64,000 nucleotides of DNA from a virus (IMGVR_UViG_3300047469_000094), one strand, 5' to 3'. Positions 8,653-30,891 are shown, counted from the first letter of the stretch. Notes: generated by a model not told the origin, from the letters alone. Program-made: numbers and translations.

Positions 8653-8844
8653 TCATTTAAAGGTTCCAAATTCAGTTGGTGAGTAGTAACCACGAGGTTC
8701 GAACGTGGCAGGTGTTCGGTGAGTAACGGTTTGTGTAGCAGGAGTAGTCTGAGTGCCCATCTGGGCTGCTACTCTAAGCTCATACTCGCTGAAGTCAAGG
8801 CGAGCGAATTCTTTATTAAACGAGTTTTGGGATTGGAAGTTCAT
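8653..8844 (-). CDS. hypothetical small protein
   Basis: 63-aa ORF. Confidence 0.4.
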   Translation of the reverse strand: MNFQSQNSFNKEFARLDFSEYELRVAAQMGTQTTPATQTVTHRTPATFEPRGYYSPTEFGTFK

Positions 8845-9232
8845 TCAGCCAGTTCTCCGCAGCAGTTTTGAATTCAGCACAGGTATCAGGATCACTAATG
8901 CCGCCAGAGATCCACGGGGCAAGGGTCTTCTCGGCAGGGGTCATCACCGATTCGTAGTTACGAACGAAGCTCTTATCCTGGACGAAACGTTCCAGAGTCT
9001 GCGACCAGTACTTTCCTTCTGCGTAGTAGCACACAGTTACTGGATAGCTATCCTTTTTCGTAGCGTGTTCGTTGGTAAGGAGAATGGTGGTGTACTCCGT
9101 ACCGTTTTCATGAATCCAAACTTGGTCATCCGATACTTTACGCATACGGATTTCCATCGTCTGCTGTCGCTTCATTGCAGCCCGTACTTCGGGGTTCATC
9201 TTCACTGAAGCTGCTTTCCTTGGTGCTTTCAT
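8816..9232 (-). CDS. hypothetical protein
   Basis: 138-aa ORF. Confidence 0.55.
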   Translation of the reverse strand: MKAPRKAASVKMNPEVRAAMKRQQTMEIRMRKVSDDQVWIHENGTEYTTILLTNEHATKKDSYPVTVCYYAEGKYWSQTLERFVQDKSFVRNYESVMTPAEKTLAPWISGGISDPDTCAEFKTAAENWLNELPIPKLV

Positions 9233-9716: not shown

Positions 9717-9760
9717 ACCTTTCCCCAGAAATAAGTAGGGGCCCGAAGAGCCCCTGTTTG

Positions 9761-11560
9761 TTACGCTGCTTTCGGCAGACTTTCAGTCAGATTCGTACGA
9801 ACCGACACCAACGTTGCTTTGGATAGAACTTGGCTGTTCCGGTACGCACAGTTGAGAACACCGTAATAACCAACGGGTTTCCCTTCGACAGGGATGTACT
9901 CACCAGCCTCATCAAACTCTACGGCCAGCCAGCCTTTGGCAGAGTGCTTACCGGTGTCTGTTTTCGGTGCCTTGTAGACATCGATTTTCAGACCGTTGAC
10001 TTCCCCGTAAGTCAGCTTCATAGCAAAGCCCAGAGAGTCACGGGTGATGTGCTGGATGCTGTAGCTACCGACACCGACCACGATATTCTCTGCGGAGAAG
10101 CCCATTTCCATCAGACGCTGCAAGATAGCTTCGAAGCGTTGGATAGTAATGGAGTCACCGTAGATCAGGCGGATCTTCGGATTCAGCACTTTGTAGCCTT
10201 TGCTGTTCACGGTGCCGCCGAACAGTTCCCACAGCCACTGGATGCTGCCTTTCTCTTCCACGGTCAGGGTAGTAGGTTCGAACTTCGAAACCTTCTTGCC
10301 GTCCATGTAGTAGAACTGCTTGTCACGACGGTTCCACTCGATGTCCACGGTGTAGCGGTACAACTCACCGTTCCAGCGGGCAACGCCAGAAACTTCGGAA
10401 CGGCCAGGTTCGCCGTGTGCGGTTTCATCGTAGACCATCTCGGTTACATAGTCCTTGATCCAGCCTTTGGCATGGTCTTCGGTTTCAGCTTCGGAGCCGA
10501 TTTCGAAGACTTCAACCGTGCCGCAGATGATGTCCTTAGGGACGCCGCTGTCAGGCCGAACTACGAACGGACCCCCTTCACGAGCCAGGATCTTGTCTTT
10601 GAGCAGTGGCAGGCCGTGCTCCAACATACCGAAGTAGTCATAGCTGTCCATCACATAGCTGATAGGACCGACGTTGTCCAAGTAGTCAGAGAGGAAGCTT
10701 ACCTCTGCTTCGAACAAGGAGCAGCCACGCATCACAGCACGCATCTGAATGTTCAGAGTTGTCAGACTGTGTTCGGTAGCCATGATGGAACCGAAGTCAG
10801 CCTTGGTTGCGCCGTATTCGTGCATCGCAGCCAAGCAACCCGGGATGTTATCGGTGCCGGTAAACGCAGACAGCATCGAAGGACCAGTTTTGTAGCCCGC
10901 CCACATGCCAAACAGACCGCGAAGACTGAAGTCGTGGCACTGATACGTTACGTAGCCGTTATCGTCAGCCGTCAGTGCTGCGTACTTCTCTGCAACAATT
11001 CGGTACTCACGAGCAATAGTTGCTACGGTGCAGGCAGGCCACAGTTCGTTACTGAAGTGGTCTTCGGTGTAGCTTGCCAGCCATGCGAAGTCCTCATGGG
11101 TGTTGTCCACCAAGATGATCGGAGTACCCGCCCGTACTACGCGGCCTTCTTCGACTGCGTGAACCTGGATAGGCAGATAACCCAGTTTGTGCAGATCGGA
11201 GTAGATGGTGAGATCTGCGTTCGGAGTAGTTGCTTCTATCAGAGGGCGGATCACGCTCTCAACTTCTTCCCACGAAGCTTCAAAGAATTGGTTCCAGGCA
11301 TGGTTGATGGCATTCAGACCTTGGAGAACCCCCGCGACAACGATCTTACCGTCGTACTTAGAACTGCCTTGGAAGTGCTTGGTGCTACGTGGGGTGAAGT
11401 TACCCTGACCCTTCGTATAGCCTTTCGGGAACAGACCTGGGTGACAAAACTTGTACGCGTCACAGAGGATGGCTGCGTACATCGGAGCCGGAGGGGTTTG
11501 CATACGGGTGATTGCAGGGTATGCGGTGGAGCTTACTGGCGTAGGGATCTGCACTTGCAT
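9761..11560 (-). CDS. nadV: nicotinamide phosphoribosyltransferase (NAMPT/NadV family; could alternatively be a Namat-type enzyme of an NAD reconstitution pathway)
   Basis: 599-aa ORF with NAPRTase-family architecture (AILCDAYKF..., central catalytic region); AAGGAAG RBS. Confidence 0.88.
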   Translation of the reverse strand: MQVQIPTPVSSTAYPAITRMQTPPAPMYAAILCDAYKFCHPGLFPKGYTKGQGNFTPRSTKHFQGSSKYDGKIVVAGVLQGLNAINHAWNQFFEASWEEVESVIRPLIEATTPNADLTIYSDLHKLGYLPIQVHAVEEGRVVRAGTPIILVDNTHEDFAWLASYTEDHFSNELWPACTVATIAREYRIVAEKYAALTADDNGYVTYQCHDFSLRGLFGMWAGYKTGPSMLSAFTGTDNIPGCLAAMHEYGATKADFGSIMATEHSLTTLNIQMRAVMRGCSLFEAEVSFLSDYLDNVGPISYVMDSYDYFGMLEHGLPLLKDKILAREGGPFVVRPDSGVPKDIICGTVEVFEIGSEAETEDHAKGWIKDYVTEMVYDETAHGEPGRSEVSGVARWNGELYRYTVDIEWNRRDKQFYYMDGKKVSKFEPTTLTVEEKGSIQWLWELFGGTVNSKGYKVLNPKIRLIYGDSITIQRFEAILQRLMEMGFSAENIVVGVGSYSIQHITRDSLGFAMKLTYGEVNGLKIDVYKAPKTDTGKHSAKGWLAVEFDEAGEYIPVEGKPVGYYGVLNCAYRNSQVLSKATLVSVRTNLTESLPKAA

Positions 11561-11570
11561 GGATACTTCC

Positions 11571-12410
11571 TTAGTTGGTTTCGCGGGTTACGTTGAGTAC
11601 TTCCAGATTACCTGTGCCCTTGAGATGGCGAATGTAACTGTTAGTGGTGAAAACTTGGTCGTAGATATCGGAAACCACCGGAATCCCCTTTGAGAAAAGA
11701 CCGTGGGTCACTGCAAGGCTTACCGACGTTGCACCTTGGCTTTTCAGGGAGTGAAGCAATGGAACGAAAGTCCCGCAACCATCACCGATATCATCCAGAA
11801 CCAGAAGGGTACGACCTTCGACAGTATCGTTTACACGAGTACCCGAGATAATACCCGTTTCGAGGTCCCGTACTTTGGTGCAGTGAATTACCCCAGCCGC
11901 ACCTACACGTTTAGCGAACATTTCCGCCTTCTTCGCAGCACCGCCATCCGGGGCCGCAATGTAGACTTCTCGCCACGACGAATAGATGTCTTTGAAGATG
12001 TCGTACTGGTTGACAACTTCGAGGCGGTTGAACAGGGCCGGGGTCACTTCACTGTGAGGATCGAGGATCTTCACGTTGACGAAGTTGCAGGCGTTGATCA
12101 GTCGTGCAACGACGGCAATACTCAGAGGCTCACCTGGATTGCATACCCGATCCTGCCGAGCGTACGGCATGTACGGGATAAACGCGGAGATCGCTGCTCG
12201 GGGATACACACGACTAACAGCATCGTGGATCATGATCAGGTTCAGCAGATCACCCTGCGTTGTCAGCCTGGCCACGATCTCTACTTCCATCACTTTTTCA
12301 GGGTAGAGGTTGCCTGTCTGAATCTGTGGCACCACTTCCCCGCCTGGGAAATTGATGTAGCTGACTTCTTCAGTTACGTTGCCGAAACGCAGGTAGATAT
12401 TCTCTTTCAT
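11571..12410 (-). CDS. prs: ribose-phosphate pyrophosphokinase (PRPP synthetase, Prs) or Prs-like ADP-ribose pyrophosphokinase
   Basis: 279-aa ORF; PRPP-binding PRTase motif LLVLDDIGDGCGT and Prs N-terminal fold. Confidence 0.88.
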   Translation of the reverse strand: MKENIYLRFGNVTEEVSYINFPGGEVVPQIQTGNLYPEKVMEVEIVARLTTQGDLLNLIMIHDAVSRVYPRAAISAFIPYMPYARQDRVCNPGEPLSIAVVARLINACNFVNVKILDPHSEVTPALFNRLEVVNQYDIFKDIYSSWREVYIAAPDGGAAKKAEMFAKRVGAAGVIHCTKVRDLETGIISGTRVNDTVEGRTLLVLDDIGDGCGTFVPLLHSLKSQGATSVSLAVTHGLFSKGIPVVSDIYDQVFTTNSYIRHLKGTGNLEVLNVTRETN

Positions 12411-12640
12411 TTCTGTTGACTCCGCTGGACGTTGTGGATGTTCAGTTTGATGAACTCAAGGGTGGAAGGGTCTACACAGGTAACCTGTGTTTTCGTGAGG
12501 AAATACTCAACGTTTTCAAGGACTAAGCGTCGTTTAATACACGCCGTCTTTGCATTGTCGCCGGTGGCAACCTTGTCGATCTTGCTCGTTAAATCGCAGC
12601 CGGACAGAGCAAGAGCCATTACGATCAAAAGGTACTTCAC
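12407..12640 (-). CDS. small lipoprotein
   Basis: 77 aa with signal MKYLLIVMALALSGC (lipobox LSGC). Confidence 0.6.
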   Translation of the reverse strand: MKYLLIVMALALSGCDLTSKIDKVATGDNAKTACIKRRLVLENVEYFLTKTQVTCVDPSTLEFIKLNIHNVQRSQQK

Positions 12641-13353
12641 TTCGTTTTCCCCTTTCTGAAACTGTGCTTATCGAAGCCGTGTGCTTGGATCAGTTCTTGG
12701 TCCGAGGCAACGTGCTTCATTTGGTTTGCCGTTGCCAGTGTACCTGAGATAAACGAAGAAATCTCTTGGAAGACAGTGACGCCATCCTTGAACTTCGTCA
12801 AACCCCATTCTTTGAGGTTTGGATTCTTTACCAGTGTGTTATCGAAAACAATGAACATCGGAATACCGAGTTCGGTAAATACCTCAACGTTCTCACGAGA
12901 AGTTGGGACTTCGAAGTCTTCGAAGAGAGTTCGCTCAGTTCTCCAGTTGCGGTGCTTACCTTCCCACTCCTGAGGCATCTCATGCTTGGAGAATGCGGTT
13001 CGATAAGTCTCGGTATCGAAAAATGAGCTGTTGTATTTAACGCTGGACTCGGTTTGCTTTCTTTCACGGTAAACAACTACCCGGTGAAGAACCCCGCAGA
13101 AGCCGAACACGCCAACAGTGTATGGGTCACGTCGGCTCACAGTGTCCGCGAATTCTCCAGTCAATGCCCGGCCCCACCCATCACACGCTGCGAGGAGGTT
13201 TTTGTACGTCTGGTCTACCTCATCTTTTCGAGAGGCCCGGTAGTACGGAAGCATCCTGACCTTTTCCTCCTCTCGGTTGTACCGGACAGACGTGTCCACG
13301 CCATAACCCGCACAGTTATCGTAAAAATCACGGAACTTAGAATTAATTAGCAT
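12637..13353 (-). CDS. hypothetical protein
   Basis: 238-aa ORF immediately upstream (operon) of prs/nadV; no motif recognised. Confidence 0.6.
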   Translation of the reverse strand: MLINSKFRDFYDNCAGYGVDTSVRYNREEEKVRMLPYYRASRKDEVDQTYKNLLAACDGWGRALTGEFADTVSRRDPYTVGVFGFCGVLHRVVVYRERKQTESSVKYNSSFFDTETYRTAFSKHEMPQEWEGKHRNWRTERTLFEDFEVPTSRENVEVFTELGIPMFIVFDNTLVKNPNLKEWGLTKFKDGVTVFQEISSFISGTLATANQMKHVASDQELIQAHGFDKHSFRKGKTK

Positions 13354-13386: not shown

Positions 13387-13441
13387 GGAAACTCTGGCCA
13401 GCCTTAAAATGGAAGTATCCTACCCTACCGAGGTGCTGTCT

Positions 13442-14200
13442 ATGTCGAGCTATAAGAAGCCTGAAACACGTCAAGCTAGTCGGAACAAGAAGAATGCTGG
13501 GAAATTCCCGGAACTCATTAACGCTCAGAAAGACGTAGAAGCTCATTTAGAATACGAAGTGAACCGAGTTCGCTTCGGGGCGTTCCAGCCTAGAAATCGG
13601 ATGCAGGGAGCATACGCAGAAGCTATCGAAAACCAACGAATTGTTTTCGGTCTAGGACCTGCTGGGGTAGGTAAGACTTTCGTGGCGACCTCTATCGCTT
13701 GTGAGATGCTAGAGGCAAAAGAAATTGAGAAAATCGTTATTACTCGGCCTATGGTCGGTTGTGACGAAGAGATGGGTTTTCTACCCGGCTCGGAGCAGGA
13801 CAAGTTTTTGCCGTGGCTTGGCCCTTTCATCGACGTGATCGAAGGTAAGCTTGGACGTAAGAAGATGGAGTCCTACCTTGAGTACGGGAAGATCGTAGCC
13901 ATGCCCTTGATGATGATGCGTGGATCTACCTTCCGCAACGCATTGGTTATCCTGGACGAAGCCCAGAACACCACCCCTAAGCAGATGAAGATGTTCCTGA
14001 CTCGTCTTGGCGAAGGCTCTCGGGTAATCATTGACGGAGACCTGGAGCAATCTGATATACCACCTGGAAAAGGCAATGGTCTAGAAGATTCTCTGTACAA
14101 ACTACAGGACTCTCACTCAGTCGCCATCGTGAAGTTCACTGAGGATGACATCACACGAGACCCTTTAGTCAGGGAAATTGTGATGGCCTACCGCAGATAA
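13442..14200 (+). CDS. phoH: PhoH-like ATPase
   Basis: Walker A GPAGVGKT, ...LDEAQNTTPKQMKMFLTRLGEGSRVIIDGDLEQSD; start chosen at ATG 13442 (GAGGTG RBS) inside longer ORF 13355..14200. Confidence 0.88.
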   Translation: MSSYKKPETRQASRNKKNAGKFPELINAQKDVEAHLEYEVNRVRFGAFQPRNRMQGAYAEAIENQRIVFGLGPAGVGKTFVATSIACEMLEAKEIEKIVITRPMVGCDEEMGFLPGSEQDKFLPWLGPFIDVIEGKLGRKKMESYLEYGKIVAMPLMMMRGSTFRNALVILDEAQNTTPKQMKMFLTRLGEGSRVIIDGDLEQSDIPPGKGNGLEDSLYKLQDSHSVAIVKFTEDDITRDPLVREIVMAYRR

Positions 14201-16384: not shown

Positions 16385-17008
16385 ATGTTTTACTTCGGCA
16401 ATATCACCGCTCACGGTGCCGTTTACCTGTATCCAGAGAAGCCCCCTCAAGATTTAATGTGGGTCGATCCAAAAGGCCATACAAATTTCTGGTGCTCAGT
16501 TCTTGGTGATTTATCTGGATCTAGTTCAAGTCCTCGTACTGAGACTCGTGAAACTCTCCCTCGCTCTGGAGAACCCTACAACTGGGTGGCCGGTGAGGCA
16601 GTACATACCCTGACTGGCAAGGTTCGTCTAGAACTGATTCCAAGTTCTGGAAAAGTAATCGTAGGTCAAATCCATGCGTATAAAGCTTCAAACCCATTCC
16701 TGATGGTTACTTGGTGGAATGGGGTTGCCCGAATCGATTTTCGAGAAGTACCTAATGGCCTGACCACTAAGGCTCTTTCAGTGCCGTGCCCTCTAGGAGA
16801 GTCGTTCGAGTACAAGATAGAGATAGATAAGTCAGGGATGCTGACCGTTACGATAAATGGACTTGGTTTTCAAACTCAAGTAAGCCCATTGTGGACTGCG
16901 TTCCCGTTCTACTTTAAAGCCGGTGCATATGTGATAGACAATTCTGGTCCGGAAACAGAAGGCGGCTGGGTAGTCTATGAAAACTTTGAAGTCTCTCACT
17001 TAAGCTAA
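16385..17008 (+). CDS. polysaccharide lyase family 7 (alginate lyase-like) protein
   Basis: PL7 signature blocks RTETRE (RxExR), QIHAY (QIH), YFKAGAYVID (YFKAGxY) in 207-aa ORF. Confidence 0.65.
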   Translation: MFYFGNITAHGAVYLYPEKPPQDLMWVDPKGHTNFWCSVLGDLSGSSSSPRTETRETLPRSGEPYNWVAGEAVHTLTGKVRLELIPSSGKVIVGQIHAYKASNPFLMVTWWNGVARIDFREVPNGLTTKALSVPCPLGESFEYKIEIDKSGMLTVTINGLGFQTQVSPLWTAFPFYFKAGAYVIDNSGPETEGGWVVYENFEVSHLS

Positions 17009-19245: not shown

Positions 19246-19650
19246 TTACTTGACCAAACGTAGACCTGGTCGTTGCTTAGGTTCTTCAGGTTCTACTACT
19301 CCACCCTCAACCGGCTCCGGTGCCGCAGGGACCGCCTGTGCTACTTCGAACACGACCCCTTGACCTGTCTGCCGGGAGTAGATACCTGCGATAGACCCCA
19401 TAGGGACCCAGAGGTCGTGCAGAACACCCTTGAAGGCGGCAGTGAAGGAGATCTTCTCATTATCCATGACCAGTTCCCGGGTTGCACCCATGGAAATGTT
19501 CAGAACAATCTGCCCGTCGGTATCCTTTTCTTCTGGGACAACTACCCCAGGATAATTCGTATGCACGAGAATGTGTACGTCGTGGTCGTTATCTGCGATC
19601 CACTCGTAGATGCCACGGAGTAGGTACGGACGGCTATCGGTCATGCTCAT
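19246..19650 (-). CDS. sspB: SspB-like ClpXP specificity-enhancing adaptor
   Basis: RPYLLRGIYEWIADN, GQIVLNIS and C-terminal ClpX-binding tail RPGLRLVK, closely paralleling E. coli SspB (RPYLLRAFYEW...GQIVLNI...RPALRVVK). Confidence 0.85.
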   Translation of the reverse strand: MSMTDSRPYLLRGIYEWIADNDHDVHILVHTNYPGVVVPEEKDTDGQIVLNISMGATRELVMDNEKISFTAAFKGVLHDLWVPMGSIAGIYSRQTGQGVVFEVAQAVPAAPEPVEGGVVEPEEPKQRPGLRLVK

Positions 19651-21264: not shown

Positions 21265-21273
21265 CTTATACCA
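21265..21273 (-). promoter_or_regulatory. extended -10-like promoter element (minus strand TGGTATAAG)
   Basis: Located ~12 nt upstream of the 5' end of tRNA-like element. Confidence 0.4.
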
Positions 21274-21829
21274 GGACTTTGTCCCGTACAGGAATACCTG
21301 CGTTGACGTAGATCTCCATGACTTCTTCGACCGTATCGCAGAGCGACTCTTCGAATGTCATAGTGAAGCTCGGGGCCTTGGCAATAAGCTCAGGTCGAGG
21401 GTAATACTTACGGCTCTTCGTATACGGGAACTCGATGTAGCAGGTAGTCTGCTTACCGCCACCCGTGTACGTCCAGCCATCAGGATCAACACCGATATAA
21501 CCTTCGATGTCGTAGGCCTTACCTTCGTCGTCTTTGAACACCGCAGAGTATCGCTTGTTTTGCCACATGGCGGGACCTACTTCACTCCACTCAGAGTCTT
21601 CGCCAGTAAGAGGGGTAAGGTTCTCTTGCAGAGCACACTTCCTAACCAGGTTAAGGAAAGGACCAATACTTCCACCAGAGTGGCCTTGCTCTGAAATGAC
21701 CTGGACGACCTGAAGAACATCTCGGGTCATCATCTTCTGCCATTCTAGGTCAGAAGGGTCTTCAGCTTGTTTTTCAAGAAGCTCAAGCTCGATACGAGCG
21801 AGGCGAACGGAGTTGCTTTCAGTTGACAT
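21266..21829 (-). CDS. hypothetical protein
   Basis: 187-aa ORF. Confidence 0.55.
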   Translation of the reverse strand: MSTESNSVRLARIELELLEKQAEDPSDLEWQKMMTRDVLQVVQVISEQGHSGGSIGPFLNLVRKCALQENLTPLTGEDSEWSEVGPAMWQNKRYSAVFKDDEGKAYDIEGYIGVDPDGWTYTGGGKQTTCYIEFPYTKSRKYYPRPELIAKAPSFTMTFEESLCDTVEEVMEIYVNAGIPVRDKVLV

Positions 21830-25161: not shown

Positions 25162-25439
25162 GTGCAGTTGACGATAATGTCCCGGCCCATCCAGGCTTCC
25201 GGAACTACGAGAAGATCACGCCCTGACCGGTAGGTGATTACCAGGTTACGGTAACGCTCTTCCGGAGATAGCTTCTGCTTAAGCTTGGCGATAGCCGTGC
25301 TGTACTCAGACGCAACTTCGTTACGAGCCTGGACGTGAGACGAAACAGAATTGTTGAAGTACTGCTGCGACTTCTTATCTTTGTTCTTCTGCTTCTCTTT
25401 CTTGCCAAACTTGCCTGCCCACCAACTAGCCATACCCAT
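25107..25439 (-). CDS. hypothetical protein
   Basis: 110-aa ORF. Confidence 0.5.
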   Translation of the reverse strand: MGMASWWAGKFGKKEKQKNKDKKSQQYFNNSVSSHVQARNEVASEYSTAIAKLKQKLSPEERYRNLVITYRSGRDLLVVPEAWMGRDIIVNCTCRKIYVDTPLPAIVRTR

Positions 25440-26332
25440 TACCTAACCTCTATGTGCTTCATGAATTCGAAAGAGTCGTTAGTGCTCGACTCGCCTTTGT
25501 AACCGTACTGGTTGGTGACCACCCGCATATCCCCGATCATATAATCGACGTTCTGATGGGTGTGACCGTGAATCCAGGTAGAGCCCTTAGGCCAGATGTA
25601 GCCCGGACCACCGTCGTCAAGATAGTCGGTATTGAAGTAAGCTGCAACGATATCCCGCTGAGGGAAGTCTCGATGAGCACTACGACGTGACGGACCAAAG
25701 TGAGTAACGATGATCGGGATACGGCCCTTACTAAGAACGTCTCTCTCAAGCCAGGTCTCCAACGCAGACACTGCCTCCTGATTCATCTTGATGTGATCTT
25801 CAGCAGTCAACATGAATCCATTGACTCGGCTACGGTGGTAATCCCCGATGCACTTCTGGATCTCAGACTGAGGTACTTGGAAGACGTTACCGTCTGCGTC
25901 GTAATCTTCGTACTTAACGAGGTTGGTGAACCACGGAGACATGAAGATCGAGTAGTTGGTGTCGGGAATGTCCATGCCTTCGTTGTAAAGGAAGGTAACT
26001 CCCTCGACCTTTGCCAAGCCCTCCCGCATGTATTGGACTTGTTCGTCCATGTTCCAGTGATGCTTGACACCATCCCAGAACTCATGGTTGCCTGGTGTGT
26101 AGAAGACAGGAACACCGCTGTACTCACGAACTGCTTTGAGGAGTCCGGGTACGTGGAGGGTATGAGTCATGTCGCCCGCAAGGATCAGATAGTCGAAAGG
26201 AGCATCTTCCGGAATATAGTCCTTGGTCATAGCTGGGGCATATTGATTGCCAAAGCGCTCATAATGGAAATCTGAGCCGAAGAAAATCTTCTTAGGCGGT
26301 TTCAAAAGGGGCGGATCTAAGGCCTGGTCCAC
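25439..26332 (-). CDS. calcineurin-like metallophosphoesterase
   Basis: Motifs ILAGDMTH, GNHEFWDG, IIVTHFGP, GHTHQN in 297-aa ORF. Confidence 0.8.
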   Translation of the reverse strand: MDQALDPPLLKPPKKIFFGSDFHYERFGNQYAPAMTKDYIPEDAPFDYLILAGDMTHTLHVPGLLKAVREYSGVPVFYTPGNHEFWDGVKHHWNMDEQVQYMREGLAKVEGVTFLYNEGMDIPDTNYSIFMSPWFTNLVKYEDYDADGNVFQVPQSEIQKCIGDYHRSRVNGFMLTAEDHIKMNQEAVSALETWLERDVLSKGRIPIIVTHFGPSRRSAHRDFPQRDIVAAYFNTDYLDDGGPGYIWPKGSTWIHGHTHQNVDYMIGDMRVVTNQYGYKGESSTNDSFEFMKHIEVR

Positions 26333-29035: not shown

Positions 29036-29290
29036 TCAGGCCTTTATTTGGAATAGTACTGTTCTACCAACCAAATGGCTACCATTCAGAAGGATACCTG
29101 TTATCTCGAAGATCCCTTTGTGGGCACGTATAGACAAATAGTCATCAGTCCTATCTGATAAACGATACGTCAATCGCTCTTCAGTTATTGAAGTGATTGG
29201 ATAATTTACGCTCATGTACCTGAAACTTATAGGAACGTCTAACGCCCTACCACCAAACCTATCCACCATCGTTGTTACGAAGTCCATCAA
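29036..29290 (-). CDS. small protein, paralog array 2 (7 tandem ~86-aa copies)
   Basis: MMDFVTTMVDRFGG...; paralogous to neighbours. Confidence 0.55.
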   Translation of the reverse strand: MMDFVTTMVDRFGGRALDVPISFRYMSVNYPITSITEERLTYRLSDRTDDYLSIRAHKGIFEITGILLNGSHLVGRTVLFQIKA

Positions 29291-29544
29291 CTGTTACCTC
29301 CGATATCAATCACGACACGTCGCTTAGATGGGAGGAAACGGCTACCCTCGGTGGTCACTGATCGAACTACGTAGTCAAATGTGCCAGAGGTTAACGACCC
29401 GGAGTCCCCATCGTCAGCCCTGTACTTAACCCGATCATCTTCAATTCCTATTACCCGATAGTACTTACGAGCATACTTGAAGTAAACACCACGAGGCATA
29501 CTCTGGTTCGAGAACAGTTTCACCATCATCGTTGCAAAGTACAT
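29287..29544 (-). CDS. small protein, paralog array 2
   Basis: C-terminal RRVVIDIGGNS shared with next copy. Confidence 0.55.
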   Translation of the reverse strand: MYFATMMVKLFSNQSMPRGVYFKYARKYYRVIGIEDDRVKYRADDGDSGSLTSGTFDYVVRSVTTEGSRFLPSKRRVVIDIGGNS

Positions 29545-29808
29545 TCATCCACTCCCTATATCTATAACGATTCTTCTTTTTCCATGGATCAAGCTGCTTC
29601 CACGGATGCGGACACCACGTATGTAGTACCTGTAGCTTGTCGCTTTTGCATACAACACTTCTACGTTGTAATCAGTCCGATACTTTATAAAGTCAGCACC
29701 TACTTCCTCTATGGGGTAACTCCTATCTCCATACTTGAAAGATAGCCCCTCAGGACTACCAAGGCCATCGAAAAGACGCACCAACGTGCTAACGAAGTCC
29801 ATACTCAT
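29545..29808 (-). CDS. small protein, paralog array 2
   Basis: MSMDFVSTLVRLFDGLG...RRIVIDIGSG. Confidence 0.55.
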   Translation of the reverse strand: MSMDFVSTLVRLFDGLGSPEGLSFKYGDRSYPIEEVGADFIKYRTDYNVEVLYAKATSYRYYIRGVRIRGSSLIHGKRRIVIDIGSG

Positions 29809-30065
29809 TTATACCTACAGTAGAGGTGGATGCGTCCACGTTCGAGAACTTTGTTAGAATTCTCTATCTTCACAGTTTGGATGTGCAGGTTCTTATAGGT
29901 GCCTTCATCCAAGACTCCTGTGCTGGAAGACCCAAGATGCCGGTACCGAATACCACCTGGAATTACCTCCGTGATTTGATAACTTACTCCGGCGAGGGAA
30001 AGCCAAAGATCGTTACCTACCGCCTTGCCAAGTAGGTGGCGCTTCAACGTTTCTATTAATCGCAT
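29805..30065 (-). CDS. small protein, paralog array 2
   Basis: ...RIHLYCRYK C-terminus. Confidence 0.55.
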   Translation of the reverse strand: MRLIETLKRHLLGKAVGNDLWLSLAGVSYQITEVIPGGIRYRHLGSSSTGVLDEGTYKNLHIQTVKIENSNKVLERGRIHLYCRYK

Positions 30066-30073
30066 AACACCTC

Positions 30074-30334
30074 CTAGCTATAGCGGCACTCAAAGTATAT
30101 ACGCGGTTTCTTTACTAACTTTTTAGCGGAAGAAATTTTGACCACCATAAGCCGCATGGAGGGGTTGCTCTCTACCGTTATGCACTCTTCCTGCATTCGT
30201 CCCCCTATCCGTAGATAGATCCCTTTGTCAGTAACCTTTGCTATTCGGTGGGTGCTACTACCCAGTGTCAGGAACGTATCTCGGGGAAGTACACGTCCAG
30301 AGAAACGCCGGATCATTTCACTTACAAACTGCAT
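30074..30334 (-). CDS. small protein, paralog array 2
   Basis: MQFVSEMIRRFSGR...RIYFECRYS. Confidence 0.55.
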   Translation of the reverse strand: MQFVSEMIRRFSGRVLPRDTFLTLGSSTHRIAKVTDKGIYLRIGGRMQEECITVESNPSMRLMVVKISSAKKLVKKPRIYFECRYS

Positions 30335-30346
30335 AACTCCCCCTAC

Positions 30347-30625
30347 TCAGTAATCAAACTGACAGTCGATGAAGTACTTAGGTGTGTTTACCAGCTTCCT
30401 CTCGGTCTCTACTGAGAAACCTTTAATATTCAGGTCGCTGTAGACATGAGGAGCCAGAAGGCTTCGACCTGTCTCATTAATATGCGTGTAATACACACCC
30501 TTGCTGTCTACGCCGACTATACGGTACGGCGTCTCTTTTATCCGGAGGTACAACTCCTTGGGAAGAGGTACACCTATTAGACGGTCAATCATTGTTTGAA
30601 CAAAGTTCATAACCCCTCCGCTCAT
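30347..30625 (-). CDS. small protein, paralog array 2
   Basis: ...NFVQTMIDRLIG...KYFIDCQFDY. Confidence 0.55.
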   Translation of the reverse strand: MSGGVMNFVQTMIDRLIGVPLPKELYLRIKETPYRIVGVDSKGVYYTHINETGRSLLAPHVYSDLNIKGFSVETERKLVNTPKYFIDCQFDY

Positions 30626-30891
30626 TCACTAGTAAACCGACAGTCAAAGACATATCGTTGTTTCTGGGTGACTTTCTTAGGCGGAGAGATGGTTACTCTC
30701 ACTATCGTTAGACTCCTTTCTTGACCCACCGTAAGGACGTTTACCGGAGACCCTTCTCGTTCCAAGGCATACCAGATACGATCCTTGCCTACTTGGAAAA
30801 TCCGATACGAGTTCTCATGAACCTTCATATAGGTTTCTTTGGGTAGCGGTACTAAATAGAAACGATCTACCAATGCCTGTACAAGTTGCAT
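30622..30891 (-). CDS. small protein, paralog array 2
   Basis: MQLVQALVDRFY...RYVFDCRFTSE. Confidence 0.55.
   Translation of the reverse strand: MQLVQALVDRFYLVPLPKETYMKVHENSYRIFQVGKDRIWYALEREGSPVNVLTVGQERSLTIVRVTISPPKKVTQKQRYVFDCRFTSE

Follow-up and report, generated by a model that had tools for sequence, protein, structure and literature searches.

A probable NARP1 module with a long-form Namat-like protein in an uncultivated large phage

The window analyzed here, a 64-kb stretch from an uncultivated phage (IMGVR_UViG_3300047469_000094), carries four consecutive ORFs on the minus strand. In the direction of transcription they encode a 238-aa protein (12637-13353; phrog_4243), a 77-aa predicted lipoprotein (12407-12640), a 279-aa protein of the PRPS fold (11571-12410) and a 599-aa protein of the NAMPT fold (9761-11560). 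The lipoprotein gene starts with GTG and the other three with ATG. The 599-aa protein matched phrog_448 "nicotinamide phosphoribosyl transferase" (E = 2.7e-141) and Pfam NAPRTase (E = 6.9e-27), and the 279-aa protein matched phrog_619 "ribose-phosphate pyrophosphokinase" (E = 8.2e-80), Pfam Pribosyltran_N and TIGR01251. A first-pass annotation had placed a NAMPT-family gene and a Prs homolog of these lengths side by side, and the coordinates together with family matches far beyond chance agree with it.

The four genes are tightly packed. The lipoprotein gene appears translationally coupled on both sides, with 4-nt overlaps at its junctions with the 238-aa gene (GTGA) and the Prs-like gene (ATGA), and 10 nt separate the Prs-like stop from the NAMPT-like start on the same strand. 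One Shine-Dalgarno-like sequence was found 5′ of each of the four genes (AAAGGAG, AAGGGG, GGAG and AAGGAAG), in accordance with the earlier statement that each gene of the Prs-like/NAMPT-like pair has its own ribosome-binding site. A candidate sigma-70-like promoter (13414-13442, minus strand; TAGACA-17-GATACT, 9/12 consensus matches) lies in the 88 nt that separate the 238-aa gene, which opens the transcription unit, from the divergent phoH, whose start was called at 13442. It is the sole sigma-70-like minus-strand site upstream of the 238-aa gene; three weak matches inside genes on the same strand were disregarded. Directly 3′ of the NAMPT-like gene, a hairpin resembling an intrinsic terminator (9727-9755, minus strand; AGGGGCTCTTCGGGCCCCT then ACTTATTTCT; 8 pairs, 6 of them GC) closes the unit with the hairpin proper at 9755-9737 and a T-rich tail, and this was the only good terminator on the minus strand. 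The overlaps, the upstream promoter candidate and the terminal hairpin support a single predicted operon that includes the 238-aa and lipoprotein genes, as the annotation had proposed.

These two upstream genes are regarded as neighbors rather than parts of a pathway. A related phage (locus L105) retains the 238-aa gene, while its equivalent of the Prs-like/NAMPT-like pair is cut down to a deletion scar; therefore the 238-aa gene is a backbone gene, co-transcribed with the pair yet not tied to its pathway. The 77-aa product begins with MKYLLIVMALALSGC, in which a lipobox (L-S-G-C) was recognized by inspection; it had no match in Pfam or PHROG and no homolog in the related locus. The extra operon genes had no Pfam match, only weak ATP-grasp-like fold matches, and BFVD matches to uncharacterized phage proteins. 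No Macro-domain Pfam match was found among the 238-, 77-, 57-, 104- and 138-aa neighbors, nor a Macro-like fold match for the structure model of the 238-aa protein.

For the function of the pair, the first-pass annotation had offered two readings, classical salvage by Prs and NadV or NAD+ reconstitution by Adps and Namat, and had named the phylogeny of the Prs-like protein as a test. In a neighbor-joining (NJ) tree of 45 sequences, phage Prs-like proteins were separated from cellular Prs, including those of E. coli, B. subtilis and human, in 300/300 bootstraps; a phage-specific clade set apart in this way is how Osterman et al. define Adps. The 279-aa protein fell inside a clade bracketed by the assayed Adps of ICP1 and SPbetaL1 and the genetically validated one of FADO. 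It thus groups with Adps and is set apart, at 100% support, from the housekeeping Prs, whereas firm clustering with the latter, together with no activity on ADPR, was the outcome that the annotation had held to count against reconstitution. Profile comparisons gave the same picture, with 219.7 bits for Adps against 81.8 bits for Prs, and 154.7 bits for an Adps profile built from the three validated sequences alone. Pairwise, the protein showed 38% identity (135 bits) to ICP1 Adps and 26-29% (62-86 bits) to Prs. It scored below every NCBIfam Prs equivalog cutoff (54-108 bits versus 296-536, e.g. 102 versus 297), and the sole Prs model that it passed was the broad TIGR01251 subfamily (135 versus 113). 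Since the equivalog cutoffs were missed and the tree excludes the protein from cellular Prs, identity as a housekeeping class I Prs was rejected.

The 279-aa protein shares the two-domain PRPS fold with class I Prs (E. coli, B. subtilis 1DKR, human PRPS1 8DBC), along with the DD motif and the conserved Phe, Arg, His, Asp and Lys residues through which ribose and phosphate are handled. Three elements of these enzymes are missing from it: the N-terminal beta-alpha element, the basic allosteric residues of the RF loop and the C-terminal alpha11-alpha12 filament module. It is accordingly shorter (279 aa versus 315-318 aa), and its alignment stops short of LAEAIRR...SxxF, a segment that every sampled Prs has. 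Loss of alpha11-alpha12 has been called the "defining evolutionary signature" of Adps (PMC13586617). The RF loop, beta-hairpin and PP loop are of the Adps type, and the motifs DPHSEVTPAL, APDGGA and KVRDLETGI are common to the protein and Adps, with the hairpin KVRDLETGII carrying the Adps-type TGxI. In the PP loop/donor-site segment (DDIGDGCGTFVP, residues 206-217; 11760-11795, minus strand), G211 and F215, as well as I188 outside it (ICP1 Ile194), are as in all sampled Adps and unlike all sampled Prs. The G211 position is Thr in every sampled Prs, and F215, the counterpart of the adenine-capping Phe221 of ICP1, is Ile/Leu in Prs. ICP1 Phe92 and Phe223 are replaced by Cys90 and Pro217, positions not conserved in other Adps either. 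Overall, class-specific columns were 26 in the Adps state, 6 in the Prs state and 23 in other states. The acceptor and catalytic residues R85, H119, D155, K179, D206, D207 and D210 are all present, corresponding to Arg87, His121, Asp161, Lys185, Asp212, Asp213 and Asp216 of ICP1 Adps, with roles as described in PMC13586617. These residues also occur in Prs and therefore point to a competent enzyme, not to its specificity.

The 599-aa protein was likewise placed with Namat. In an NJ tree of 21 sequences, proteins in Namat context and Nampt were split in 500/500 bootstraps, and the protein was on the Namat side. Its profile scores were 421.8 bits for Namat and 267.4 bits for Nampt, and its class-specific columns comprised 21 in the Namat state, 5 in the Nampt state and 10 others. 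The best sequence matches in the PDB were the SPbetaL1 Namat entries 9W5W/9W5X (267 bits; human NAMPT, 154), and Namat chains of the same entries were the best Foldseek matches of its AF2 model (pLDDT 93). The protein formed a long branch, and its score on the Namat profile is below the approximately 600 bits of pf16 and POP17. With SPbetaL1 Namat (Arg306, catalytic His, RPDSG) as reference, its catalytic core is intact (R335, H264 within ATEHS, D237, RPDSG at 335-339 and DFSLRG), and it does not carry the KVP40-type Nampt states GMGGGLLQ, QGD and DFG.

Namat enzymes carry a clamp helix with the signature GSX(T/S)X(Q/N)X(N/V)TRD, whose aromatics at positions 3 and 7 stack on adenine (PMC12774641). 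The corresponding motif here is GSYSIQHITRD (residues 498-508; 10037-10069, minus strand), which keeps the frame of Gly-Ser, Tyr500 at position 3, Ser501, Gln503 and TRD; the sampled Nampt have GGGLLQxxxRD or a close variant at these positions. It departs from the consensus at position 5 (Ile502 instead of Tyr) and position 7 (His504 instead of Tyr/Phe). Ile at position 5 was seen in 8 and His at position 7 in 15 of 61 aligned sequences, the window protein included, and the latter also occurs in a NARP1-context protein of mycobacteriophage Silverleaf. Position 7 is occupied in SPbetaL1 Namat by Tyr396, which stacks on adenine, and His504 could do the same. The clamp loop (TPRSTKHFQGSSKYDGK, residues 56-72; 11345-11395, minus strand), with K61-H62-F63, was compared with a published rule (PMC12774641), which asks for Arg, Lys or Tyr as the third residue and, where Lys is found there, assigns the stacking on adenine to the residue after it, as in Bas63. 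At the sequence level TPRSTK61-H62-F63 fits this rule; at position 61, 41 of the 61 relatives have Lys and 10 have Arg, and at position 62, 21 have His and 19 have Tyr.

The Namat-like protein also carries an 89-residue insertion (residues 348-436; 10253-10519, minus strand), which follows RPDSGxPxDIICG. The linker at this site measures 97 aa, compared with 18-19 aa in SPbetaL1, FADO, ICP1 and Staph K. The insertion is predicted to form a discrete subdomain of one helix and a three-stranded sheet (E351-353, H361-379, E389-396, E399-410 and E418-429) with pLDDT of about 84-94 in blocks spanning 341-440, and its HGxxG, WNRxD and Y motifs are near-invariant across 61 long-form relatives. The homolog in HY02, a Felixounavirus like Bas63, has an insertion at the same site that is not homologous to this one. 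The alignments suggest that the 599-aa protein belongs to a large, uncharacterized "long-form" Namat subfamily with the conserved insertion and a His/Ile-type clamp.

Because the Prs-like protein lies in the validated-Adps clade and its partner with Namat, the pair is very probably a NARP1 module (NAD+ reconstitution pathway 1) of this uncultivated large phage. Of the two readings offered, reconstitution by Adps and Namat is thus upheld by the trees, the profiles and both clade placements, and classical Prs and NadV salvage is not. By analogy with characterized NARP1, we infer two reactions and an anti-defense phenotype. [quoted passage not shown] The 599-aa Namat would then let nicotinamide displace the pyrophosphate of ADPR-PP to yield NAD+ and PPi. 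In this way NAD+ may be regenerated directly by Namat, with no need for PRPP, NMN or an adenylyltransferase.

The order of a Prs-like gene followed by a NAMPT-like gene also occurs in ICP1, HY02, pf16, SPbetaL1, FADO, Staphylococcus phage 676Z, Listeria phage P100, mycobacteriophage Silverleaf and Pseudomonas phage ZGC, and a Namat homolog adjoins 97% of Adps-clade genes (Osterman et al., bioRxiv 10.1101/2024.02.11.579819). Compared with the reference NARP1 of SPbetaL1, FADO, Bas63 and ICP1 (the same study; structures in PMC12774641 and PMC13586617), the window pair has the same two-gene order, tight adjacency and membership of both clades (100% at each split). The truncated PRPS without alpha11-alpha12, the catalytic Lys/His/Asp set, DPHS(D/E)VTPAL, APDxGA and the PP-loop Gly/Phe states of NARP1 Adps recur in the 279-aa protein, and the GS-aromatic clamp-helix frame, Lys-type clamp loop and catalytic core of NARP1 Namat recur in the 599-aa protein. 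However, identity to validated members is just 34-38% for Adps and 36-37% for Namat, Ile and His stand at clamp positions 5 and 7, where the references have Tyr at both, and the 89-residue insertion is absent from SPbetaL1, FADO and ICP1. Unlike the reference modules, the pair of this metagenomic phage sits behind the 238-aa and lipoprotein genes in one transcription unit. NARP1-AP, in which NARP1 is joined by the Macro-domain ADPR-1′′-phosphate phosphatase Adpp (bioRxiv 10.64898/2026.01.28.702374), also has extra operon genes around a NARP1 core, but those of the window are not Macro domains. No Macro-domain phosphatase lies within two genes of the core, and membership in NARP1-AP was rejected.

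The database names, with Pfam, PHROG and TIGR01251 matches that read Prs and NAMPT, fit a different picture, in which the 279-aa protein is a streamlined PRPP synthetase, the 599-aa protein a nicotinamide phosphoribosyltransferase, and host NadR/NadD-type enzymes turn the NMN into NAD+. The catalytic residues that Prs and Adps have in common agree with this picture as well, and Namat enzymes keep PRPP-to-NMN activity in vitro, so that some classical salvage flux is possible. Furthermore, the NadV of Haemophilus ducreyi (9KE8/9KEO), a bacterial protein employed in NMN production as a PRPP-dependent Nampt and able to work as Nampt in vivo, nests within the Namat clade with 86% support and matches the window protein at 256 bits, near the 267 of SPbetaL1 Namat. 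Membership of the Namat clade alone is therefore no proof of Namat function. H. ducreyi NadV is a solo gene, not known to have an Adps partner. Its clamp is degenerate (GAQTYQRNTRD, which lacks the Ser as well as aromatics at positions 3 and 7), whereas the window clamp retains GS-Tyr. The Prs-like partner argues against salvage, given its exclusion from cellular Prs, its equivalog scores and its Adps-type architecture; SPbetaL1 Adps of the same clade yielded no product from ribose-5-phosphate. Bas63 still overcame SIR2-HerA when both pncC and nadR were deleted from the host, and NMN salvage is therefore not the route in this homolog. Classical salvage, which would make the pair a metabolic boost and not a defense countermeasure, is very improbable. 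It is barely conceivable that the 599-aa protein is a PRPP-using Nampt served by a phage Nmnat encoded elsewhere, as in NARP2 of KVP40 (NadV Nampt and NatV/NadR-like Nmnat), a restorer of NAD+ with the same NAMPT fold and catalytic core. With a longest contig of 165 kb, the genome has at least that length; the inspected sequence amounts to about 84 kb, roughly half, and leaves room for a distant Nmnat gene. KVP40-type Nampt are PRPP-preferring, show GMGGGLLQ where Namat has the clamp helix and are partnered by Nmnat, not by a Prs-like gene. They form a separate clade with 100% support (KVP40, D491s, T4-like, Aeromonas, Citrobacter, Klebsiella, Xanthomonas, Caulobacter and Burkholderia phages), and the window protein has none of their characteristic states. 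Searches of the 64-kb window and of the approximately 84 kb turned up no gene for Nmnat, Nudix, PnuC or Macro: tblastn with KVP40 Nmnat and PnuC gave nothing significant in the window, and no called gene had a precomputed Pfam match to CTP_transf_like or Nudix. No phage with both NARP1 and NARP2 was reported by Osterman et al.

A further question is whether the pair, as NARP1, is equivalent to SPbetaL1 and Bas63. The Ile502/His504 clamp and the insertion might alter donor choice or control of the Namat-like protein, for example by admitting another ADPR-derived donor or by channeling labile ADPR-PP from Adps. Its long branch and lower profile score are compatible with such a variant, as is the conserved and confidently folded insertion; a word search of the structural paper on Namat turned up no description of an insertion. 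On the other hand, the catalytic core is intact, and His is a common residue at clamp position 7 and is also present in a mycobacteriophage protein of NARP1 context. HY02 has a large insert too, and NARP1 has in vivo validation in Bas63, which belongs to the same genus; a large insert therefore need not set a module apart from ordinary NARP1. A module of such altered specificity or control is therefore very improbable. That the insertion gives a new property of any kind, such as Adps docking with ADPR-PP channeling, gating of activity or a wider donor range of ADPR-derived immune products, is rather unlikely.

At a distance of 9 kb from the pair, the phage also encodes Tad3, an inhibitor of Thoeris (Pfam E = 6e-31), and thus already invests in countering NAD-based immunity.

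As a NARP1 module, the Adps-like and Namat-like pair would be an ordinary new example of an anti-defense system that has already been described. If the insertion did give the Namat-like protein a new property, the module would be NARP1 in a functionally altered form rather than a simple copy.

The window encodes four adjacent genes on the minus strand: a gene without assigned function (12637-13353, 238 aa), a predicted lipoprotein gene (12407-12640, 77 aa; by inspection, the N-terminus MKYLLIVMALALSGC carries a lipobox), a Prs-like gene (11571-12410, 279 aa) and a NAMPT-like gene (9761-11560, 599 aa). Consecutive 4-nt overlaps, GTGA and then ATGA, link the first three genes, and the Prs-like and NAMPT-like genes are separated by a 10-nt spacer containing AAGGAAG. 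Upstream of the unit, a sigma-70-like site (13442-13414, minus strand) lies in an 88-nt divergent region shared with phoH. A terminator with an 8-bp stem (6 GC) and a T-rich tail (9755-9737, minus strand), the only convincing one on this strand, directly follows the NAMPT-like gene. The 279-aa protein matched phrog_619 (E = 8.2e-80) and Pfam Pribosyltran_N, and the 599-aa protein matched phrog_448 (E = 2.7e-141) and Pfam NAPRTase; both family assignments are unambiguous. The ORF positions, junctions, single promoter-like site, terminator and family matches thus confirm the gene pair and the operon described in the first-pass annotation.

Gene pairs annotated as Prs and Nampt in phages are known to be Adps and Namat (Osterman et al., bioRxiv 10.1101/2024.02.11.579819), the two enzymes of the NAD+ reconstitution pathway NARP1. 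Adps generates ADPR-PP from ADPR and ATP, and Namat generates NAD+ from ADPR-PP and nicotinamide. The Adps clade is phage-specific and apart from Prs, and Namat is encoded next door in 97% of its members. A separate Nampt clade, which includes KVP40 NadV, prefers PRPP and is accompanied by Nmnat (NARP2) (bioRxiv 10.1101/2024.02.11.579819).

We compared the Prs-like protein with three validated Adps (ICP1, SPbetaL1 and FADO), with Prs-like proteins in NARP1 context from HY02, pf16, POP17, 676Z, P100, Silverleaf and ZGC, and with metagenomic relatives. HY02, a Felixounavirus, was taken as a proxy for Bas63, which presumably belongs to the same genus; the HY02 locus was at least 80% covered by 214 of 254 matching records, most of the matching records being at least 90% identical. 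The nearest Adps relatives were from Pseudomonas phages. Cellular Prs were taken from E. coli and nine further gammaproteobacteria, together with those of B. subtilis and human. The contig scan with E. coli Prs yielded solely gammaproteobacterial sequences (at least 80% identity), and the B. subtilis and human sequences used were identical to PDB 1DKR and 8DBC.

The Prs-like protein was closer to ICP1 Adps (38% identity, 135 bits) and to the pf16 protein (49%) than to Prs (26-29%, 62-86 bits); the E. coli, B. subtilis and human Prs are mutually 47-51% identical. A neighbor-joining tree separated all phage sequences from all cellular Prs in 300 of 300 bootstraps, with the window protein inside the phage clade. 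Phylogeny had been proposed in the first-pass annotation as the check between Adps and Prs, and it placed the protein outside housekeeping Prs in every replicate. Profile scores were 219.7 bits for Adps (eight NARP1-context sequences, excluding the closest relatives of the window protein), 154.7 bits for the three validated Adps only and 81.8 bits for Prs. Among NCBIfam models, only the broad subfamily model TIGR01251 was passed, and all Prs equivalogs were missed by a wide margin.

In the alignment, two parts of Prs are missing from the protein: the beta-alpha element at the N-terminus and the LAEAIRR...SxxF helices at the C-terminus. Loss of the C-terminal alpha11-alpha12 module is a family signature according to the ICP1 Adps structures (PMC13586617). 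The motifs of the window protein are those of Adps, namely DPHSEVTPAL (DLHAxQIQGFF in Prs), APDGGA (SPDxGG) and the hairpin KVRDLETGII (KRRPRxN). Gly211 is in the Adps state (Thr in Prs), Phe215 corresponds to the adenine cap Phe221 of ICP1 (Ile/Leu in Prs), and R85, H119, D155, K179, D206, D207 and D210 are all kept. At class-specific columns, where validated Adps plus HY02 and cellular Prs have disjoint residue sets of low diversity, the protein matched Adps in 26 cases, Prs in six and neither class in 23.

The NAMPT-like protein had its best PDB sequence matches in the SPbetaL1 Namat structures 9W5W and 9W5X (267 bits), from which the selectivity clamp and its motif GSX(T/S)X(Q/N)X(N/V)TRD were defined (PMC12774641); Xanthomonas Nampt and human NAMPT scored 160 and 154 bits. 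In a 21-sequence tree, the window protein and the other NARP1-context sequences were split from Nampt in 500 of 500 bootstraps. The Nampt side comprised human NAMPT and nine phage Nampt that are NARP2-type or adjacent to Nmnat (KVP40, D491s, Aeromonas 25 and AS-gz, Ci1, KM3, CcrPW, BUDD and BcepSaruman). The human sequence used scored 1131.2 bits over residues 1-491, equal to wild-type entries such as 2GVG. Profile scores were 421.8 bits for Namat (eight sequences), 319.2 bits for the three validated Namat and 267.4 bits for Nampt, and class-specific columns were in the Namat state 21 times, in the Nampt state five times and in another state ten times. The AlphaFold2 model (pLDDT 93, pTM 0.89) retrieved Namat chains as the top Foldseek matches (E = 1e-43 to 1e-41; about 1e-37 for human NAMPT).

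The clamp helix (residues 498-508) reads GSYSIQHITRD, while every sampled Nampt has GGGLLQ or a close variant, and the clamp loop K61-H62-F63 agrees with the published Lys-type rule. The protein also has YGD and DFS where Nampt has QGD and DFG. Ile at clamp position 5 and His at position 7 are non-canonical minority states, found in 8 and 15 of 61 aligned sequences, respectively; the His recurs in mycobacteriophage Silverleaf. The protein forms a long branch and has a lower Namat profile score than pf16 and POP17.

The next-best PDB matches of the NAMPT-like protein, 9KE8 and 9KEO, were Haemophilus ducreyi NadV, which is employed as a PRPP-dependent Nampt for NMN production. In the tree, this enzyme fell inside the Namat clade beside Namats of Gram-positive phages (86% support). 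Therefore, clade membership of the second enzyme does not by itself prove the use of ADPR-PP, which leaves some room for the classical salvage by Prs and NadV. However, H. ducreyi NadV has a degenerate clamp (GAQTYQRNTRD), whereas the window protein keeps Gly-Ser-Tyr and has an Adps gene as its partner. H. ducreyi NadV seems to be derived from phage Namat, as a bacterial branch in which the use of PRPP was either regained or retained.

The other known NAD+ pathways were also considered. NARP2 pairs Nampt with Nmnat, and tblastn of KVP40 Nmnat and PnuC against the window gave nothing significant. Neither Pfam scans of the larger ORFs nor the precomputed Pfam matches of every called gene over about 84 kb, about half of the phage genome, revealed an adenylyltransferase or a Nudix, PnuC or Macro domain. 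NARP3 (PnuC and a NadR-like protein) was rejected, the window having no similarity to PnuC or NadR. These searches thus provide no support for NARP2, NARP3 or NARP1-AP, in which NARP1 is combined with a Macro-domain Adpp. The window encodes two calcineurin-like metallophosphoesterases (3244-3981 and 25439-26332, both minus strand), one of them NinI-like (phrog_246, E = 8e-60); neither is an Adpp phosphatase of the Macro-domain type. The first-pass annotation had left two options for the pair, and the trees, profiles and motifs of both proteins point to reconstitution by Adps and Namat rather than salvage by Prs and NadV. The analysis itself shows the operon, the clades in which both proteins fall, their signature motifs and, over the region covered, no alternative pathway, and the locus is very probably a NARP1 module with Adps followed by Namat.

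The Namat-like protein carries an 89-residue insertion (residues 348-436; window 10253-10519, minus strand), as seen in the alignment and the AlphaFold2 model. Between RPDSG and the KG..LW..FGG helix, there are 97 residues in the window protein and 18-19 in compact Namats. Pectobacterium phage POP17 has a homologous insertion (43% identity); same-site insertions of HY02, P100, ZGC and pf16 showed no detectable homology to that of the window protein. The insertion was modelled confidently as a helix and a three-stranded sheet (pLDDT about 84-94). Nearly all of the best 120 database relatives of the protein are 560-615 aa long, and in 61 of these 120 His382-Gly383, Gly386, Trp409-Asn410-Arg411 and Tyr417 of the insertion (motifs HGxxG, WNRxD and Tyr) are near-invariant. 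A keyword search of the Namat structure paper (PMC12774641) gave no description of the insertion.

The 238-aa protein had 26 homologs, every one on related phage contigs, and no homolog was found in nine other NARP1 loci. One related locus is on a 168.7-kb contig (NCBI GCA_019702715.1, JAAQVM011840904.1), which shares with the window a backbone of SNF2 helicase, DUF7338, PhoH, a 235-aa homolog of the 238-aa protein and Band_7. In this contig, an 82-aa ORF (8705-8953) occupies the place of the NARP1 genes. Its first 47 residues match the start of the Adps-like protein at 60% identity, and its last 38 or so match the Namat-like protein at 74% identity (residues 558-595). The ORF is a natural deletion scar; the pair was ancestral at this site and has been lost in that lineage. 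Since the contig with the scar keeps the 238-aa gene homolog and has no lipoprotein gene, both upstream genes are treated as co-transcribed neighbours, not pathway parts.

The window represents an early/replication region encoding DNA polymerase A, a primase, two helicases, a sigma factor, a PD-(D/E)XK nuclease and PhoH. The DNA polymerase A gene is closely followed downstream by a tandem array (29036-30891, minus strand) of seven diverged paralogs, each 83-92 aa long, with pairwise identities of 22-37%, BLASTP E-values down to 3e-14 and no Pfam match in precomputed calls. A record of the same phage that reaches past the low end of the window encodes, just beyond that end (10519-12018 of the record), a 499-aa Ro60/TROVE-vWA-like protein with a faint TROVE match. 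Metagenomic contigs as long as 165 kb, including JGI 3300046538 and Logan SRR26075501, encode an identical Prs-like protein. A nucleotide comparison with 50,697 phage records gave no match for the locus, and the best phage matches of the primase were Vibrio phage D69 (33% identity) and Salmonella phage Arash (29%). The source is thus an uncultivated large phage, only distantly related to sequenced phages. The phage also encodes a 207-aa alginate lyase family 2 protein (16385-17008, plus strand) and an SspB-like protein (19246-19650, minus strand); the alginate lyase hints that the host may be an alginate producer such as Pseudomonas.

The window also encodes the Thoeris inhibitor Tad3, at a distance of about 9 kb from the two NARP1 genes (21266-21829, minus strand). 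This 187-aa protein scored 107 bits (E = 6.2e-31) with Pfam PF25185 'Type I Thoeris inhibitor Tad3', for which the cutoff is 27.

JGI and PHROGs still label the pair as Prs and NAMPT, a wrong annotation that is now settled. Annotation by clade alone is risky, as the Namat clade also holds the working PRPP-dependent Nampt of H. ducreyi. Other workers may find use for the simple set of class-specific residues that distinguishes Adps from Prs, and Namat from Nampt, and for the insertion subdomain, which is conserved in many metagenomic Namat proteins. The understanding of the NARP1 pathway is unchanged, the main residual curiosity being the conserved insertion and the His/Ile clamp variant. By homology to validated enzymes at 34-38% identity, the two proteins would catalyze both reactions and exert the anti-defence effect. 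With Tad3 in addition to NARP1, the phage would have two independent ways of countering NAD-based immunity, and a large phage so equipped is predicted to resist NAD+-depleting defences.
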